In this document: positions 6,150-21,488 of the stretch, piece by piece | How positions within the stretch are numbered: position 1 is the first letter of the stretch | How the letters are laid out: every line of letters starts with the position of its first letter | Sequence record: ON286974 | Direction: 5' to 3' (one strand) | DNA length: 64,000 bases | Source: Escherichia phage W115 | Made by a program: the position numbers and the translations under genes | Notes under the pieces: model-generated | What the model was told of the DNA's origin: nothing | Databases searched by the model: none | What the model saw: only the letters and a program-made list of their open reading frames with translations

Positions 6150-7667
6150 GTGAGGCTATTCGCTATGCAAGATATTAAAATTCACTTTCTGAACTACTCC
6201 CATGTTCAAATTGAATGTAGCGATTCAATTTTATTAGAAATGCGAGATTATTTTAGTTTTGAAGTCGAGGGAGCGCGGTTTCAAAAAAGATTTAAGTATG
6301 GTGGATGGGATGGGCGTATTCGTCTTTTAGATTACAACGGAAAGCTGCCAATCGGCCTAACTAAAACCGTGGGAATCTTCGCTAAAAATATGGGCTATAG
6401 CGTATGGGTAGATCCTCGCTTATTCGAAAAAGAACAAGTTACAGAAGAAGAAATTACAAAATGGTGTAATGACTTAGAATTATATTCCGGTGCTAACAGG
6501 ATCACCCCGCATTGGTATCAATCAAAGGCCGTCTTTGAAGGTATTCATCATAAACGCCGTATGTTAGTTTTGCCTACGTCCGCTGGTAAATCTGCGATTG
6601 CTTGTATGTTGTCTCGTTGGTACTTAGAGAACTACGAAGGGAAAGTGTTGATCATCGTTCCTACCACGTCGCTAGTGCTGCAAATGCGTGATGACTTTGT
6701 TGATTATCGCCAGTTTCCTTATGAAGCAATTCATACTATCATGAGCGGTACTAGTAAACACGTAGGTGATCGCCTGATCGTTGTTAGTACGTGGCAATCT
6801 GCATGTAAACAACCTCGTGAGTGGTTCCAACAATTCGGGATGGTTATTGTTGACGAATGTCATAAAGCCACTGCTAAAAACCTGCTAAACATCGTTACTG
6901 ATATGGATCATTGCCAATTTAAGATCGGCATGACTGGTTCCCCTCGTGACGGGAAAGCTAACATGATGCAGTATGTCGGGCTTTTCGGTGATATTTCTAA
7001 GATCGTGAGTATTGACCGCCTGATGGAAGAAGGTCAGGTGACAAAACTGAAAATTAACTGTCTTTTCCTTCGTTATACCGATGAGGAATGTAGCGCGGTT
7101 AAGGGGCGAGAATATGCGGAAGAGATCAAGTATATTACGTCTAACCCACGACGAAATAAGTTTGCTTGTAATTTGGCGCTAAAACTCGCTAAGAAGGGCG
7201 AAAACGTATTCCTGATGTTCCGCAATACTAAGCACGGAAAACTTATGTATGACGCGTTACAGAAGGTACACGACAAGGTTTATTATATTGACGGTGGAGT
7301 TAAGACAGAAGAACGTGATGAATTTAAGAAAATGGCGGAGGGTGACACCGGGATCATTTGTGTTGCGTCTTATGGTGTGTTCTCTACTGGTGTTTCAATT
7401 AAGAATTTGCACCATGTTATTTTCGGTCATCCAGTGAAGGAATCAACTATCGTTCGTCAGAGTATCGGTCGTGCATTGCGCAAACATGGTTCTAAGGATA
7501 TTGCAACGGTCTGGGATCTTATAGATCATCTGGCGGTGAAGACAAAGAGCAAGAATGCTAAGAAACAGTTTAGTCACCTTAATTATGCTCTTAAACATGC
7601 CCTTGAAAGAATAAAAATTTACAACACCGACCGATTTGAATATGTCACGAAAACCATCGAGATTTAA
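6150..7667 (+). CDS. uvsW: UvsW RNA-DNA and DNA-DNA helicase (SF2)
   Basis: 505 aa; Walker A LPTSAGKS, DEAD-like IVDECH, helicase C-terminal motifs (RQSIGRALR); synteny. Confidence 0.9.
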   Translation: MRLFAMQDIKIHFLNYSHVQIECSDSILLEMRDYFSFEVEGARFQKRFKYGGWDGRIRLLDYNGKLPIGLTKTVGIFAKNMGYSVWVDPRLFEKEQVTEEEITKWCNDLELYSGANRITPHWYQSKAVFEGIHHKRRMLVLPTSAGKSAIACMLSRWYLENYEGKVLIIVPTTSLVLQMRDDFVDYRQFPYEAIHTIMSGTSKHVGDRLIVVSTWQSACKQPREWFQQFGMVIVDECHKATAKNLLNIVTDMDHCQFKIGMTGSPRDGKANMMQYVGLFGDISKIVSIDRLMEEGQVTKLKINCLFLRYTDEECSAVKGREYAEEIKYITSNPRRNKFACNLALKLAKKGENVFLMFRNTKHGKLMYDALQKVHDKVYYIDGGVKTEERDEFKKMAEGDTGIICVASYGVFSTGVSIKNLHHVIFGHPVKESTIVRQSIGRALRKHGSKDIATVWDLIDHLAVKTKSKNAKKQFSHLNYALKHALERIKIYNTDRFEYVTKTIEI

Positions 7668-7673
7668 TAAATA

Positions 7674-7694
7674 GGGGCTTTAATGCCCCTTTAT
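7674..7694 (+). terminator. hairpin plus T-run after uvsW
   Basis: ggggc-tttaat-gcccc followed by tttatt. Confidence 0.45.
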
Positions 7695-7710
7695 TCTACG
7701 GAGATTAAAA

Positions 7711-7947
7711 ATGATTAGCTTTAAACGTTTTTTGGTTGAGGCCGCTATTGACGGTTTCATGCGTAAGATTTATTCTTGTAATACTATCGAGGGATTAAAT
7801 GAACTTGAGGCATATTATGAGAAGCGCAAGAAAGAAACAGAATTGAAACCTGCTGATGATATTTCGATCCGTGATGCCATCGCTGGACGCCGTAAGCAAT
7901 TGGAAGCGGACAACGAGCCAGAAGATGAGCCGGAAGAGGATTTTTAA
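7711..7947 (+). CDS. uvsW.1: UvsW.1 small acidic protein
   Basis: 78 aa ORF immediately downstream of uvsW, as in T4. Confidence 0.7.
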   Translation: MISFKRFLVEAAIDGFMRKIYSCNTIEGLNELEAYYEKRKKETELKPADDISIRDAIAGRRKQLEADNEPEDEPEEDF

Positions 7948-7952
7948 GATAT

Positions 7953-7980
7953 AAAAAAGCCCCATCATTGATGGGGCAAA
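7953..7980. terminator. bidirectional intrinsic terminator
   Basis: gccccatc-att-gatggggc hairpin flanked by an A-run upstream and a T-run downstream; lies between convergent genes. Confidence 0.6.
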
Positions 7981-8010
7981 ATAAACCAATTAAAATCGGT
8001 TATCAACAAA

Positions 8011-8187
8011 TTACATTAACAGCATTGTTTGCTCTACGAGTTGTTCTTGTTCTTCGCCGTTCGCATCTTCACTAATCGAACGTTCTGTTACTAGCTGTAA
8101 GCAGTAGCCAGTGTGAACAACGCCGTTTTCTGTCTGGACGGATAACGCATCCTCGACAGGTTGTTTACAACAAATACAGATTTTCAT
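8011..8187 (-). CDS. small Cys-rich protein (58 aa), UvsY.-2-like position
   Basis: Manual ORF MKICICCKQPVEDALSV...; AGGAGG RBS; immediately upstream of uvsY. Confidence 0.35.
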   Translation of the reverse strand: MKICICCKQPVEDALSVQTENGVVHTGYCLQLVTERSISEDANGEEQEQLVEQTMLLM

Positions 8188-8208
8188 AAAAATTCCTCCT
8201 GCATGTAT

Positions 8209-15854: not shown

Positions 15855-15860
15855 TAAGCG

Positions 15861-15890
15861 AAAGGCGGGGATTATCCCCGCCTTTTTATT
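15861..15890. terminator. bidirectional intrinsic terminator between convergent gene 54 and the alt operon
   Basis: ggcgggga-ttat-ccccgcc flanked by A-run and T-run. Confidence 0.65.
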
Positions 15891-16371
15891 TTGCTAAATC
15901 ATTGCAATATTTTAGTGCCTTAGTTTGAAATTCTGCGCTGTTAAGTTCTTCATAACGGTCATAATCACCGTTTAATGCTGCCTTTCTTGCTTCTTGCTCT
16001 ATCTGCATGTCAGACATGATAATACAGCGATCCCGCGCTTTCATCTTCTCAAGTTGTATAGACTCTTCTTTCTGCTTGCGCAATTCTTCTTGACGCTTCT
16101 TTTCTTCTTGTGCTTTCTCTTCCCGCGCTTCTTTGATTGCCTCCTTGAACATCTGCGTTTGTGGTGCTAAACCAACTTTAACTCGATCTACGTCTCGACG
16201 TTCCATTTTAGAAATAAAGCATGATTCGATCTGATCATCACTTGCATATGCTGCTTTACATTCACGAAGCAAGAAAACCGGATCTGATTTAGCATTCATC
16301 ATAGCTTCCATGTTGGCACAACCAGTAAGCATGAATGCAGCCGCAAGACCAATCAGTTTAATCATTTTCAT
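15886..16371 (-). CDS. putative lipoprotein with charged coiled-coil region
   Basis: 161 aa; lipobox-like LTGC after a signal peptide; Glu/Lys-rich helix; start overlaps the stop of the upstream ART gene by 4 nt. Confidence 0.55.
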   Translation of the reverse strand: MKMIKLIGLAAAFMLTGCANMEAMMNAKSDPVFLLRECKAAYASDDQIESCFISKMERRDVDRVKVGLAPQTQMFKEAIKEAREEKAQEEKKRQEELRKQKEESIQLEKMKARDRCIIMSDMQIEQEARKAALNGDYDRYEELNSAEFQTKALKYCNDLAK

Positions 16372-17192
16372 TTAGTCACCTCACCGAAAATTGTAAATTG
16401 TCTACGATTCTCATCGCCGAAAGATTCTACTACGTCGTTTACCTTGACGCAAGTCCCGCGCGGTAAAATTACTTCACATTCGCAAGGGTTCCATGCAATG
16501 GACCCAACAACAAAACCTTTATGATCTTTTACATCAATCACCCATGATACATTACAAGAATGTTGCATCTTTCCGGTCACGGATTCATATCGATTCTCAC
16601 AATAAAGGCTAGTGCTGTTTGATAGCCAGCCTCCAAAGATGATCGGTGTCATGCTGGTCGATACAAAGTTTTTAAAGGTAAATTCCTTATCTTCAATAAT
16701 ACGCTCTATTGTCTGAATGTCAAGATGTTGACCTCGATAAAGAGTACCGTTTAACTTTTCGGTTTTATCCATGACGCAATCCATCAAATCAACAATTTCT
16801 GATATCTCGTCGGTCATGTCCTCTTCCCCTAAGAGAGCACCATTTACCCATTCGTATTGTTCAGACACATAATCACAGATTGCATTATATTCTGCTGGGG
16901 TTATGTTGTTATGTTTGTAATGTTTGAATACATTATCTCCAAAGTCTTCGGAATGTACTTCATACATCACATTAATGATTTTCTTGACAAATCCATAATC
17001 TTGCGTCTCGCGCTCAAGGAAGCGGATAACCTTCACATAATCATCAAAGTTAATCTGATCGCTGATCATCTCAGTGATCATGTAACCATTAATCCCCTCA
17101 ATGTCATATGTTTCGATGTAATTATCCATACGTTCCATCATTGATTCGCGTGATTCTTCTGAAAGACGAAAATCCTGTAATTGTTTGAACAT
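16368..17192 (-). CDS. Alt-like ADP-ribosyltransferase (short paralog of Alt)
   Basis: 274 aa; R-S-E ART motifs (TLYRGQHLD, FVSTSMTP, ECEVILPRG) co-linear with the catalytic region of the adjacent Alt protein. Confidence 0.75.
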   Translation of the reverse strand: MFKQLQDFRLSEESRESMMERMDNYIETYDIEGINGYMITEMISDQINFDDYVKVIRFLERETQDYGFVKKIINVMYEVHSEDFGDNVFKHYKHNNITPAEYNAICDYVSEQYEWVNGALLGEEDMTDEISEIVDLMDCVMDKTEKLNGTLYRGQHLDIQTIERIIEDKEFTFKNFVSTSMTPIIFGGWLSNSTSLYCENRYESVTGKMQHSCNVSWVIDVKDHKGFVVGSIAWNPCECEVILPRGTCVKVNDVVESFGDENRRQFTIFGEVTK

Positions 17193-17212
17193 TTTAAACC
17201 TCCCATATAACA

Positions 17213-17250
17213 GAAAACGGGGCTAGTATAAAACTAGTCCCCGTTTGAGT
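17213..17250 (-). terminator. intrinsic terminator downstream of alt
   Basis: cggggctagt-ataaaa-ctagtccccg hairpin followed by a U-run on the minus strand. Confidence 0.55.
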
Positions 17251-17270
17251 CAACCATTATTTCTTAAAAA

Positions 17271-19322
17271 TTACATTTTAAATTTATCTGGCATTGCGTC
17301 TACAGATACCAGATCAGCGATAAGCTGACGTAGAGTTGCCTTATCTGCTTTCTTACGTTCGGTTTTAGCTTCGCTAATGAAGCTGGAGAAAGACAGGTCA
17401 GAAGCAGGTTTAACAACACCTTCACGGATGAATGCATCACCGTCCGCGATCATCTCGCCAGATTCTTGTAATGCTGCCAGTTCATTTTTGTTCATAATAT
17501 GTGCCTCAATGTAATAAGTTTCTTGTGAATCCGTCGATGCCGTAGCACGAGTTACCGTATCAAAGGATAACACAACACCGCGAGGAAGTAAAATCTCGCA
17601 TTCTTTGTAAGCAAATGCTTTGTTACCTACTGGCAACACAGGGATGTTTTCCGCGCCAGCAATGGAGAAAGCAACATTAGCGCCACCTTCACCGCGAGAG
17701 CCAGCCATAGAATCAACACCAGCAACGGCACTAGCCACGTTTGCATTCCAGCCGCCAAAAATGTTAGGTTCAAGGGAAGTGCTCACATAGTTTTTAAAGT
17801 AAAACGCTTTTTGCTTACGTGCAGTTTCCCACATTTGCGACCGGAAGTCCATACCACGATACAGAATAGTACCCGGATCAAGTTTAACGCCATAGTTGGA
17901 GAAGGCATTATCCAGTGCATCGCACATCTTGACCAATTCTTCTGGATCTGCGATGCCTTCAAACTCTTCCAGCTTACGGTCGGTTAGGAAGTTGTTCATA
18001 TTGATGTATGCTGCATCGGCATATTCGCTCAACACAAAACCTTCCGCGCCCGGCAGATCAAGATCAATATCTGCCATCATTTCACCCATGTTGCTAGCAA
18101 TTGCTTCAAACATACCGGAAGCAACATTACGTAGGGCATCGGTTTTAATCTGGGTGATATGACTACGCAGCATTTCAGCTTTTACATCTGCTGGCATAGA
18201 CTGGTCTACTCGATCCATTGCCAGGGCGGTGATCTTGTTTTCGAATACTTCCTCGCTCATGATTTCTTTTAAGCGTTTGATTGATGCTGCGATAACTTCC
18301 GCAGACAACGGATCATATTGATCCTGAACTTTTACCAGTTCGCTTACTGCGTATTTTGCATCGGCTTCGCTTTCAAAAATAGTACGCATGAAACCATAGC
18401 GAGTGATAATATCACTTGTCCAGTCATTCAGAGAACGGGCGGTTGAACGTTCTAAGGCTTGACGGTCAATCAGAGTATTAAACTGTTTCTTAGGTTCTGC
18501 TTCGGTGATATCTTCTTCCGGTTTAAGATTAATTTTTTCTGGATGATTCACATAGTCGCTGTTATAGGTCGCTTGAGTTTTCAGCATTTCTTCTTTAGTC
18601 AAACGAGATTTAGCCGCTACGCGTTGTTCTGCTTCCGAGTTTCGTTCTTCTTCTGACACAAGACTAGCCGCATACGCCTCATCTTTAGTCAGAGATTCAC
18701 CAGTAGCCTTAGATACCCAGCGATCACCTAAATCACTTTCTACTTTAGTGAACAAGGATTCATCAAGTTTAATCCCTTTAATCTTATCAATCGCCATCCC
18801 GCGACGCTTGACAACAACTAAAGCGATCTTTTTGCTGGTCATTACTTCCTGCTGGAATACTTCAAACTTCGGTGTACGACGCACCAAACGCTCTATAACG
18901 CGCTTAACCAGTTCGGTCTTACCTTTCATGCGGGATACGTTAAAACGGAACATAACAGCGTCTAATTGCGCTTTACGGGCTGTTTCCATAACCACATCAA
19001 AAGCACTTGCCATAACTGCAATCGGGTTATCTCCTAGACCATTTTTAAGCTGTACAATACGACCGCTTTTGTTCATTTCGCACAGTACAACATGTGCGGT
19101 CTTGTCACCCATACGAATGATTTTAGGTGTTTTGTTGGTGAAGTTACAAAGACGGACAATCACATCTTTATCGCGTGTCTGTACTGCAAAAAGCTGTTTA
19201 GGATTCTGCTTAGGCTTTAAGCACTGTACCGGAGCAATACTACCAAAGTTTTCTTCCTCTTCCGTCAACAGCCATTTCTCGAAAGATTCAATCATTAGAT
19301 CGTCGATTTCTAAGTTAAACAT
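17271..19322 (-). CDS. alt: Alt ADP-ribosyltransferase (capsid-packaged, modifies host RNA polymerase in T4)
   Basis: 683 aa; ART motifs ILYRGMDFRS, YVSTSLEP, ECEILLPRG; size and position after gene 54 as in T4. Confidence 0.85.
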   Translation of the reverse strand: MFNLEIDDLMIESFEKWLLTEEEENFGSIAPVQCLKPKQNPKQLFAVQTRDKDVIVRLCNFTNKTPKIIRMGDKTAHVVLCEMNKSGRIVQLKNGLGDNPIAVMASAFDVVMETARKAQLDAVMFRFNVSRMKGKTELVKRVIERLVRRTPKFEVFQQEVMTSKKIALVVVKRRGMAIDKIKGIKLDESLFTKVESDLGDRWVSKATGESLTKDEAYAASLVSEEERNSEAEQRVAAKSRLTKEEMLKTQATYNSDYVNHPEKINLKPEEDITEAEPKKQFNTLIDRQALERSTARSLNDWTSDIITRYGFMRTIFESEADAKYAVSELVKVQDQYDPLSAEVIAASIKRLKEIMSEEVFENKITALAMDRVDQSMPADVKAEMLRSHITQIKTDALRNVASGMFEAIASNMGEMMADIDLDLPGAEGFVLSEYADAAYINMNNFLTDRKLEEFEGIADPEELVKMCDALDNAFSNYGVKLDPGTILYRGMDFRSQMWETARKQKAFYFKNYVSTSLEPNIFGGWNANVASAVAGVDSMAGSRGEGGANVAFSIAGAENIPVLPVGNKAFAYKECEILLPRGVVLSFDTVTRATASTDSQETYYIEAHIMNKNELAALQESGEMIADGDAFIREGVVKPASDLSFSSFISEAKTERKKADKATLRQLIADLVSVDAMPDKFKM

Positions 19323-19362
19323 TTTATATCCTCTAGTTGATAACCTATAAACCTATATTTAT

Positions 19363-19390
19363 GAAAAAGGGGCTTAACGCCCCCATTTAT
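19363..19390 (-). terminator. intrinsic terminator
   Basis: ggggcgttaagcccc hairpin plus T-run on the minus strand. Confidence 0.55.
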
Positions 19391-19879: not shown

Positions 19880-19920
19880 GTGTGCATTATAGGGGATCAC
19901 CGATCCCCCTGTCAACAATT
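19880..19920 (-). promoter_or_regulatory. PeSL early promoter cassette 2
   Basis: TTGACA - palindrome GGGGGATCGGTGATCCCC - TATAAT, then CCGAAACGAAA leader and GGAGAATCAAA before ATG. Confidence 0.6.
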
Positions 19921-19922
19921 TT

Positions 19923-20441
19923 TTAGTTATTTTTTAATTGCTCATCTTGCAATAGGGCAATCACATGCTGGCGATGTTCTTCCGATTGAGGCACACCGAA
20001 AAAGTTTGTTTTGTAGAAATACTCTAATCGGTCTTCTCGTGTGCTCTCTTCCATCATGATCGCGGGTAGTCCGAGATTTCGGAAACGTCGCTTTTCTGCT
20101 GGCGTAAAATCACTGTAATACAACATAGAATCATCATTACCAGCAATGCTAAACTCATCCTTCATAAAGGAGAATATTGCGTTTAAACGCTGTTTACCGT
20201 CCACGATTTCGATCTCATAGCGAGAGCCATCATCAATCTTAGCCATTGCGATAGCACCAACCGGAAAATCATTAATCAGGTTTTCGATAAACATACGTTT
20301 GTTTTCGGTGTCCCATACCAAAGGACGCTGATAATCTGGGTTCATGTTGATATAGCCATCTTCTAACCATGCATCATAAACAGAGATGACAAAGTTTTTA
20401 GTATTGGTATAGTAACGGCGTTTAGGCGTTAAACGGTTCAT
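19923..20441 (-). CDS. DUF262 / ParB-like domain protein (GmrSD N-terminal-like)
   Basis: Track ORF trimmed to ATG with AGGAGA RBS; NPDYQRPLVWD...FPVGAIAM...EIVDGKQRLNAIFSF matches the DUF262 signature (DGQQR-type). Confidence 0.65.
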   Translation of the reverse strand: MNRLTPKRRYYTNTKNFVISVYDAWLEDGYINMNPDYQRPLVWDTENKRMFIENLINDFPVGAIAMAKIDDGSRYEIEIVDGKQRLNAIFSFMKDEFSIAGNDDSMLYYSDFTPAEKRRFRNLGLPAIMMEESTREDRLEYFYKTNFFGVPQSEEHRQHVIALLQDEQLKNN

Positions 20442-20442
20442 G

Positions 20443-20775
20443 TTATAGTCTCCTGAATGGATCATCACGTAAATCAATATCTTTTAAGAACTCATCCCAT
20501 GAATGGCGGATATTGTTCTTAATTCTCCAGATAAGAGCAGGGATTGAACGCTCTCCCATCTGGAAGTATGGATCATATGATCCGTATGCCCAATATGCTA
20601 CTACAATTCCACAATCAGCGCAATAGTATTCTATTTCACTTGCTGGCGACCAAAGTCCATCAATATGATCGGTGATCTTGCTTTCGATGTTATGGCTATG
20701 ACAATCAGGGCAACGGATGCAATGACCTTGTTTATCGTAATTTGACGTTAGCGAATACTTAAACAATCTCATCAT
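20443..20775 (-). CDS. zinc-ribbon protein
   Basis: 110 aa; CIRCPDC ... CADC (two CxxC pairs); overlaps neighbours by 4 nt. Confidence 0.55.
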   Translation of the reverse strand: MMRLFKYSLTSNYDKQGHCIRCPDCHSHNIESKITDHIDGLWSPASEIEYYCADCGIVVAYWAYGSYDPYFQMGERSIPALIWRIKNNIRHSWDEFLKDIDLRDDPFRRL

Positions 20776-21488
20776 AGATCCTTATTGGCTTCAAATACTG
20801 CCTTTGCGAATCCTCGCGGGGTAAGTGACCTGATAGTCTTTGTTCTGGTTCCTTTCCCGCCTAGCTTAGAATGCTGTTTACTGTACCCTTTATTAATCTG
20901 CAACGGTTTCTTTTCTGGCATTATAAAGCCTTGTCCGGTCCATAAGCAAGTCTTTTTTGGGTACATATCACGGGCGGCAATATACTCAGGAAACGTAGGA
21001 TGTTTATCATCTTCCGGCAAATAACCGCCATATTCCCACGGATGGAACATGTAATCAGGCTTACGCCACATGCTAGAGATAACGCTTACAGGATTCTCTA
21101 TCATGTATGGAACTCCTAGCCATTCACCCAAATAAGCGGTTATTTTAGCTGCCCGTACATCATGAACTTGAATCAATGGTCCTTGTTCTCGTTTCTTTCG
21201 TTCAAAGTGCGCAGCGCCACTAACAGCTAAATTGGTGCACGGTGGGAATGCAAAGATAATATCCGGTTTCCCCCATTCAAGGTCCATTGCTCTTTCCAGC
21301 CAGTTCAAATCAATCCAGGTGTTTACATAGGTAATGTTTTGATGTTCAAATCTGGTATTATATTTTTTGTATGTACCGTGGTCGGCGTCATCCGCATTAA
21401 AGCAGACTACCTTATGACCTGCTTTAGCCCATTCTAGCCCCATTATCCCCGATCCGTCAAAGTTGCAGAATATTAATTTTTGTTTCAT
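20772..21488 (-). CDS. C5-cytosine methyltransferase-fold protein (minimal, atypical)
   Basis: 238 aa; motif I-like FDGSGIMG, motif IV-like FPPCTNLAVSG (PC dipeptide), motif VI-like IENPVS; no obvious target-recognition domain. Confidence 0.5.
   Translation of the reverse strand: MKQKLIFCNFDGSGIMGLEWAKAGHKVVCFNADDADHGTYKKYNTRFEHQNITYVNTWIDLNWLERAMDLEWGKPDIIFAFPPCTNLAVSGAAHFERKKREQGPLIQVHDVRAAKITAYLGEWLGVPYMIENPVSVISSMWRKPDYMFHPWEYGGYLPEDDKHPTFPEYIAARDMYPKKTCLWTGQGFIMPEKKPLQINKGYSKQHSKLGGKGTRTKTIRSLTPRGFAKAVFEANKDL

Follow-up and report, generated by a model that had tools for sequence, protein, structure and literature searches.

An RB49-like coliphage with a catalytic-domain-only Alt paralog, a PeSL element ahead of it and a polymorphic lipoprotein gene behind it

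Background

Why would a T4-type phage carry, directly downstream of alt, a second and shorter gene for an Alt-like ADP-ribosyltransferase (ART), followed in turn by a gene for a predicted lipoprotein, and do these three genes work together? This question is raised by a stretch of 64,000 nucleotides from Escherichia phage W115 (sequence record ON286974), analysed here as a whole and called the window. Over its full length, the window is 98.5-99.2% identical to 58 Krischvirus genomes (RB49, phi1, JSE, GEC-3S and others), and it belongs to Krischvirus, that is, to an RB49-like T4-type coliphage. The three genes are RB49 alt (RB49p184), RB49p183 and RB49p182, and the three open reading frames (ORFs) that a previous sequence-only reading of the window had delimited (683, 274 and 161 amino acids) have correct coordinates throughout. 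The locus comprises the following features:

17271 to 19322, minus strand: alt, full-length Alt ART, 683 amino acids (PHROG 802, E 1e-179; Pfam PF03496 over residues 425-610)
17193 to 17270, minus strand: PeSL (promoter-early stem-loop) cassette in the 78-nt spacer that follows alt and precedes the short ART gene, assigned from promoter match, folding and conservation
16368 to 17192, minus strand: short Alt-like ART, 274 amino acids, RB49 ORF183, analysed with Pfam, PHROG, BLASTP, hhalign, AlphaFold2 (AF2)/Foldseek and dN/dS (the ratio of nonsynonymous to synonymous substitution rates)
15886 to 16371, minus strand: predicted outer-membrane lipoprotein, 161 amino acids, RB49 ORF182 (signal peptide 1-17, lipid-modified Cys18, charged helix 72-133)

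The explanation that we favour, and consider probable, is that the 274-amino-acid gene derives from a duplication of alt and encodes an active ART reduced to its catalytic domain, which has its own PeSL, is made early and is not packaged, while the co-transcribed lipoprotein serves a separate function in the envelope and exists as old alleles that recombine.

The paralog itself is already known. It has been annotated since the release of the RB49 genome, with a RefSeq note on RB49p183 that reads 'similar to C-terminal part of T4 Alt', and RB49 ORF183 was described as a paralogous duplication of alt by Nolan et al. 2006. What is new here is the conserved PeSL that separates a late alt of the packaged type from an early paralog consisting of the catalytic domain only, the presence of three ARTs per Krischvirus genome with an origin unlike that in T4, and the ancient allelic polymorphism of the lipoprotein linked to the short ART.

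The short ART retains the catalytic domain of Alt

The R-S-E motifs that had been read from the sequence are present in both proteins, as TLYRGQHLD, FVSTSMTP and ECEVILPRG in the short ART and as ILYRGMDFRS, YVSTSLEP and ECEILLPRG in Alt. Residues 151-257 of the short ART are 36% identical to Alt 487-593 (BLASTP E 9e-16), a similarity far beyond chance. The N-terminal half had been taken as unrelated to Alt; this holds for the first ~66 residues, which lack a detectable Alt counterpart, but not for the remainder, as profile-profile comparison with hhalign aligned residues 67-273 to Alt 394-610 (probability 99.9%, E 1.8e-33). The first ~66 residues are confidently helical in the AF2 model and no homolog of them was detected. 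Pfam PF03496 (ADPrib_exo_Tox) matches residues 82-266 of the short ART with a score of 58.8 bits (cutoff 23.4; E 5.9e-16), the PHROG 15144 profile 'ADP-ribosyltransferase' spans the protein end to end, and PHROG 802 also matches.

The catalytic residues R153, S178-T-S180 and E238-x-E240 are invariant across short ART homologs down to 22% identity and align to R489, S514/S516 and E574/E576 of Alt. The AF2 model of the short ART (predicted local distance difference test (pLDDT) 83, predicted template modelling score (pTM) 0.81) matched in Foldseek the C3 exoenzymes (C3bot), Vis, iota Ia, CDTa and C2-I (E ~1e-9, probability 1.0, template modelling score to target 0.6-0.72). This comparison, of the structure-based kind that the earlier reading had called for, uses a predicted model; a sequence search of solved structures with the short ART returned marginal matches only (E of at least 0.067). 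Judged from its sequence and modelled fold, the short ART is a real C3/VIP2-type ART with the R-S-ExE signature and a member of the PF03496 group, and it is probably active as an arginine-type mono-ADP-ribosyltransferase. Its description as a diversified Alt paralog that keeps the catalytic residues was thus borne out, and had already been published and annotated; an additional host target, as had been suggested, is plausible.

Relative to its close relatives, the short ART has a dN/dS of 0.014-0.047, in the same range as that of alt (0.02-0.055) and indicative of strong purifying selection, and none of 58 genomes has a disrupted reading frame for it. With T4 and RB49 Alt it shares the homologous catalytic domain (Alt 394-610), the Y-R-G, S-T-S and E-C-E motifs and a gene that adjoins alt and derives from it by tandem duplication. 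It differs in lacking ~390 N-terminal and ~70 C-terminal residues of Alt, in having 66 N-terminal residues of its own, and in the early-type promoter before its gene, where alt has a late-type box.

Duplications of alt and the set of ARTs in Krischvirus

Duplication of alt is a family trait of T4-like phages, and the second copies take several forms:

T6 and JS10 (altb): full length
Tequatrovirus-like contig L025 (3183-5248): split, 273 + 415 amino acids
T4-like contig L024 (2366-4386): split, 356 + 316 amino acids
T4 alt.-1/alt.-2: remnant of the N-terminal part of alt
Krischvirus: catalytic domain only, 274 amino acids

All share the duplication theme and a position between alt and gene 54. 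The copies elsewhere are full length, split or an N-terminal remnant, whereas that of Krischvirus is catalytic-only and has its own PeSL promoter. The split copies in L025 and L024 each consist of an N-terminal ORF (273 or 356 amino acids) and a catalytic ORF (415 or 316 amino acids) with overlaps of 4 nt or 1 nt, and such copies may represent a natural intermediate toward an ART with the catalytic domain only. The Krischvirus gene would go back to an ancient tandem duplication of alt in which one copy kept only this domain.

Pairwise comparison of the short ART with T4 ModA and ModB by BLASTP gave no detectable similarity (E 0.42 and 1.5). A scan of the whole genome of Krischvirus RB49 (record OZ035808.1) found one further ART, a Mod-like protein of ~167 amino acids encoded outside the window at 86701-87258 on the minus strand of that record (loci L021/L022). 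It starts with MQFTPEEL, carries the motifs LYRG, SFT and ERE, and matches T4 ModB with a phmmer E of 1e-9 and ModA with 6e-4. Krischvirus thus appears to have a single Mod homolog where T4 has two. Alt, the short ART and the Mod-like ORF together make three ARTs per Krischvirus genome, as in T4, but to judge from the sequences the third one arose from alt and not from a duplication of mod. The short ART resembles ModA and ModB in its small size (200-274 amino acids), the R-S-ExE motifs, early expression (predicted for the short ART) and membership in a set of three; it differs from them in its genomic location and in that a separate Mod homolog is encoded elsewhere in the Krischvirus genome.

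A conserved PeSL separates alt from the short ART gene

The genes had been placed in one 'Alt operon'. This is doubtful, because the 78-nt spacer between alt and the short ART gene has a strong hairpin with a U-tract, resembling a terminator, and a TTGACT-17-TATACT promoter. On the minus strand, the order of elements is TAA, an AT-rich stretch, TTGACT, 17 nt, TATACT, a hairpin over the -10 box, UUUUCU, GGGAGG and ATG. The elements of the spacer, and the two other candidate signals that bound the locus, are:

17248 to 17253 and 17225 to 17230, minus strand: predicted promoter, -35 TTGACT and -10 TATACT, with 10/12 matches to the sigma-70 consensus and 17-nt spacing
17215 to 17246, minus strand: 12-bp hairpin (CGGGGaCTAG/CTAGCCCCG) that overlaps the -10 box and is followed by UUUUCU; GGGAGG is the Shine-Dalgarno sequence
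19356 to 19384, minus strand: hairpin (19368-19384) and then CATAAATA (19356-19363), a late-promoter-like box upstream of alt
15860 to 15886: bidirectional hairpin terminator common to gene 54 (plus strand) and the lipoprotein gene (minus strand), recognised from the sequence, annotated as a terminator in TB34 and conserved in L010

The spacer hairpin folds with a dG of -20.6 kcal/mol (z -3.9), and none of 200 shuffled sequences folded as well. In metagenomic relatives with Alt and short ART proteins of only 44-48% identity, the element hardly varies, and compensatory changes occur at two pairs of its main stem. In an alignment of four loci, TTGAC and TATACT do not vary. L030, a more distant locus, has TTGACA and the variant -10 box TATGAT; a further variant of the PeSL (GGAGGCATC/GATGTCTCC) occurs in the most distant relative found. 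Rfam gave a single match to the region, far below threshold.

This anatomy fits the definition of a PeSL in PMC2839356, namely boxes with a spacing of 16-18 nt after a stop codon in an AT-rich context and a stable stem-loop with a G-run and a C-run. With the PeSLs of RB49 and phi1 (Arbiol 2010, Comeau 2014) the element shares an AT-rich stretch with a stop codon in it, -35 and -10 boxes that are close to consensus and 17 nt apart, a hairpin of a G-run and a C-run that extends over the -10 box, the Shine-Dalgarno sequence and the start codon; it differs from them in lying in a conserved core region and in being itself conserved far beyond the genus. Other RB49 and phi1 copies act as a strong sigma-70 promoter and an effective terminator (PMC2839356). 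The alt/short ART spacer is thus a PeSL in its anatomy, and by likeness to those copies it is likely to act as promoter and terminator as well.

Eight further PeSLs were found on the minus strand of the window, with -35 boxes at 19915, 22047, 22291, 26079, 27206, 27600, 38503 and 62455. These eight are near-identical to each other (TTGACAGGGGATCnnnGATCCCCTATAMT, then ACACATACCGAAACGA and AGGAGAATCAAA) and precede small ORFs of the hyperplastic region. Their hairpin lies between the -35 box and the -10 box, whereas that of the alt/short ART PeSL overlaps the -10 box.

Upstream of alt, the CATAAATA box occupies the position of the hairpin and late promoter TATAAATA of T4 alt, and the distant relative L010 has a hairpin and AATAAATA at the matching place. 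An exact search for TATAAATA found no canonical late promoter preceding alt or the short ART gene; the best likeness upstream of alt is a 7/8 match, recognised by comparison with T4. The window alt is 99% identical to that of RB49. Since a packaged head protein must be made late, and given the late-type box, alt is likely to be expressed late. In the precomputed Pfam assignments, the domain PF26846 (Tevenvirinae_ADPRT) is listed for Alt and not for the 274-amino-acid homologs.

Read in this way, most transcription arriving from alt would terminate at the hairpin, and a new early transcript would begin at the sigma-70-like promoter. The short ART gene is thus probably not in one operon with alt, and together with the lipoprotein gene it would make up an early unit of its own, closed by the terminator (15860-15886) that also serves gene 54. 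With a PeSL promoter and terminator of its own directly upstream, the short ART is most likely synthesised inside the cell immediately after infection and not injected from the capsid. It would act on cytoplasmic host proteins beside the injected Alt and the single Mod-like ART, in a role like that of ModA and ModB but with a different origin.

A co-encoded lipoprotein restricted to Krischvirus-like phages

The third gene had been read as encoding a lipoprotein with a Glu/Lys-rich helix, and both features are present. The protein starts with MKMIKLIGLAAAFMLTGC, which divides into an n-region and an h-region ahead of the lipobox L-T-G-C; the N-terminus MKMIKLIGLAAAFM-LTGC has a positively charged n-region, a hydrophobic h-region and a lipobox that conforms to [LVI][ASTVI][GAS]C, of which G17 and C18 are invariant in 26-29 homolog sequences. 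Position +2 is occupied by Ala or Ser instead of Asp; under the E. coli sorting rule, this suggests the outer membrane as the destination. The lipoprotein is thus probably exported and anchored in the outer membrane. AF2 predicted an all-helical protein (pLDDT 88) with one long charged helix of 62 residues (72-133). The features conserved in the family are the signal peptide, the cysteines at 38, 51, 116 and 156, which likely form two disulfides, a G-D/N-Y motif, and the charged helix, the length of which varies by indels.

In-frame indels in this Glu/Lys-rich helix (window 16060-16150, residues ~75-105) were seen in P0016, P0018, P0035 and KFS-EC: a deletion of 5 amino acids in KFS-EC, deletions of 7-15 amino acids in P0016 and P0018, and a duplication of 11 amino acids in P0035. 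They suggest that the helix is a spacer of uncritical or tuned length.

The lipoprotein family is restricted to Krischvirus-like phages. It was found in 56 phage records, all of Krischvirus, and in 46 clusters at 90% identity, and an exhaustive profile search of 1.84 billion representative proteins returned 10 matches, all of this same small family, so no distant homolog hints at the function. Scans of three lipoprotein alleles against Pfam, NCBIfam and PADLOC gave nothing above the cutoffs, only matches at the level of the signal peptide or low complexity, and a search for relatives by fold found none. The gene in the equivalent position in T4, T6 and JS10, alt.-3, does not encode a lipoprotein. 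PseT.3/PseT.2, the annotated spanin pair, is encoded in another part of the genome.

Old lipoprotein alleles are exchanged at a constant ART

The lipoprotein gene lies directly 3' of the short ART gene in all 14 loci inspected (the window, 011D4, Whisky, AV108, JK32, KFS-EC, L010, L012, L015, L027, L029, L030, L031 and L032), with junctions that are overlaps of 4, 1 or 8 nt or a gap of 1 nt. In the window, the overlap of 4 nt that had been noted is confirmed, the ART stop and the next start forming ATGA at 16368-16371. Such strict synteny agrees with a common early transcript. The proteins encoded at these loci differ greatly in their identity to those of the window (amino acids):

011D4: Alt 99.7%, short ART 99.3%, lipoprotein 33.9%
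Whisky: Alt 99.6%, short ART 99.6%, lipoprotein 31.4%
Hadza contig L027: Alt 99.0%, short ART 97.1%, lipoprotein 82.0%
L029: Alt 98.2%, short ART 96.7%, lipoprotein 33.3%
L010 (distant relative): Alt 45.2%, short ART 43.6%, lipoprotein 39.1%
AV108 and JK32: lipoprotein 29-32%

At the DNA level, the divergence shows as a replaced tract:

15900 to 16340, minus strand: allele-replacement tract over the mature lipoprotein, in which DNA identity to 011D4, Whisky, AV108 and JK32 drops from 97-100% to 20-50%

Its breakpoints are sharp. Identity drops within the region coding for the signal peptide (~16340) and recovers at the terminator in 011D4, whereas in Whisky, AV108 and JK32 the recovery comes only once gene 54 has been entered. 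At 39% identity, the allele of the distant relative L010 is nearer to the window allele than alleles B and C of near-identical phages are, and alleles A and A' differ with a dS of ~1.06 and a dN/dS of 0.10, which indicates old lineages under purifying selection that are moved by homologous recombination, and not a fast-evolving gene. The lipoprotein evolves independently of the short ART. Several old and divergent alleles would thus be exchanged by homologous recombination between related phages, while co-transcription keeps the gene in its unit: carried on the same early transcript as the short ART, the exported, all-helical and presumably envelope-directed lipoprotein would remain in place without sharing the task of the enzyme.

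Allele B (L003 4001-4516; AV108 L006 2322-2834) has the lipobox L-N-G-C, where alleles A and C have L-T-G-C; Asn at -2 is atypical for substrates of signal peptidase II (SPase II). In Whisky (L004 4540-8195), and also in AV108 (L006) and JK32 (L007), the divergent tract runs into the 3' end of gene 54, and gp54 is 86.8% identical. The position of the tape-measure gene gp29 in Whisky is annotated as two ORFs (6517-7053 and 7083-8195), compared with one gene for 577 amino acids.

Alternative explanations

For the enzyme, packaging is one alternative. The short ART would then be made late by read-through from alt and injected like Alt, so that the virion delivers two ARTs. Its gene lies directly downstream of alt in the context of a head protein, intrinsic terminators leak, and phage ARTs are often packaged in the head (PMC9503650). 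The short ART, however, has no equivalent of Alt 1-393, a region that includes the Tevenvirinae_ADPRT domain (PF26846), and the strong conserved terminator and sigma-70 promoter before its gene argue for early expression; we therefore hold packaging to be unlikely. The view of the 274-amino-acid ORF as a functionless remnant of the duplication, decaying as T4 alt.-1/alt.-2 appear to do, can draw on the several states of fission and decay in which second alt copies are seen, but it is effectively refuted: the dN/dS of 0.014-0.047 is not that of a decaying copy, the frame is intact in all 58 genomes, and every catalytic residue is invariant in homologs of ~40-98% identity. Several points nevertheless weigh against an early, unpackaged ART with an independent lipoprotein, the explanation that we prefer. 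Early timing is deduced from the consensus of promoter and terminator, and the overlap of the spacer hairpin with the -10 box bears on how strong the promoter of this PeSL would be. Late read-through from alt could still supply short ART for packaging, and the first ~66 residues of the protein could carry a targeting function. A literature search for virion proteomics, transcriptomics or expression data on RB49-type phages or any Krischvirus found none. Finally, the synteny of ART and lipoprotein genes in 14 of 14 loci exceeds what co-transcription needs and leaves room for a functional link.

That link had been proposed in the form of an immunity or localisation partner, with the gene overlap as its mark. 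As functional partners in immunity, localisation or activation, the two proteins would be produced in a ratio set by translational coupling, which would explain why the lipoprotein gene follows the short ART gene at every locus, that of the most distant family member included, always with a tight junction, and why the family occurs nowhere else among the 1.84 billion representative proteins. Gene overlaps are, however, routine in such genomes: over 44 kb of the near-identical genome of phage G5211, 20 of 66 neighbouring pairs on the same strand overlap, and in 13 of these 20 the overlap is 1 or 4 nt long. The predicted compartments also differ, the lipoprotein having a signal peptide and lipobox and the ART having none, and mature lipoprotein alleles of 31-34% identity are paired with ARTs that are 99.3-99.6% identical. 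A lipoprotein that is swapped while the ART stays constant does not behave like half of a toxin/immunity pair, and we know of no evident need of a lytic phage for immunity to its own ART; T4 ModA and ModB have, to our knowledge, no such partner. The partnership thus seems to us quite improbable. Superinfection exclusion by receptor masking, of the kind known from T5 Llp and phi80 Cor and matched to the phage's own receptor, would suit a predicted early outer-membrane lipoprotein encoded beside oppositely oriented baseplate genes, with the high allelic diversity typical of conflict genes and a weak PHROG match to Cor (E 0.006). This match is confined to the signal peptide, however, and the allele tracks neither the similarity of gp37 nor dependence on OmpA: RB49, Cognac and Whisky depend on OmpA and Brandy does not (PMC9569957), while RB49, Cognac and Brandy carry allele A and Whisky carries allele C. 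The lipoprotein shares with T5 Llp, Cor and o-spanins a signal peptide with lipobox, small size and a phage origin but no similarity of sequence or fold, and its allele does not follow the receptor; we regard this kind of exclusion as unlikely too. Our preferred guess, at low confidence, is that the lipoprotein acts more generally in the envelope, for example by excluding superinfecting phages at the step of DNA entry. A bolder version, which we consider doubtful though conceivable, sees PeSL, ART and lipoprotein as an early cassette acting in two compartments, in which the polymorphic lipoprotein is a previously unrecognised conflict factor of the envelope (in superinfection exclusion against related phages or evasion of envelope defences), frequency-dependent selection maintains ancient alleles of it that Krischvirus lineages exchange, and the linkage to the ART reflects a shared task.

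Implications and genomic surroundings

For the ART itself little changes, as the truncated alt paralog of RB49-type phages was known and T4-like phages commonly have several ARTs. One copy of alt appears built for packaging, with a late-type box and a long N-terminal region, and the other for early synthesis, with a PeSL and the catalytic domain only, and Krischvirus thereby offers a natural setting in which to study the role of the N-terminal region of Alt and whether the paralogs differ in their targets. The lipoprotein represents a small family, confined to one clade, with old and divergent alleles in otherwise near-identical coliphages of the therapeutic type; should it indeed serve in exclusion or in the envelope, the behaviour of such phages in cocktails could be affected.

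The gene trio is flanked by a hyperplastic region of small early ORFs and by the convergent baseplate genes 29-48-54. The PeSL-rich early region encodes, immediately upstream of the alt cluster, a DUF262/GmrSD_N-like protein (Pfam PF03235 on the L027 homolog; annotated in G5211) and a DNA methyltransferase, at 19923-20477 and 20772-21488, both on the minus strand, with possible functions in anti-restriction or modification.

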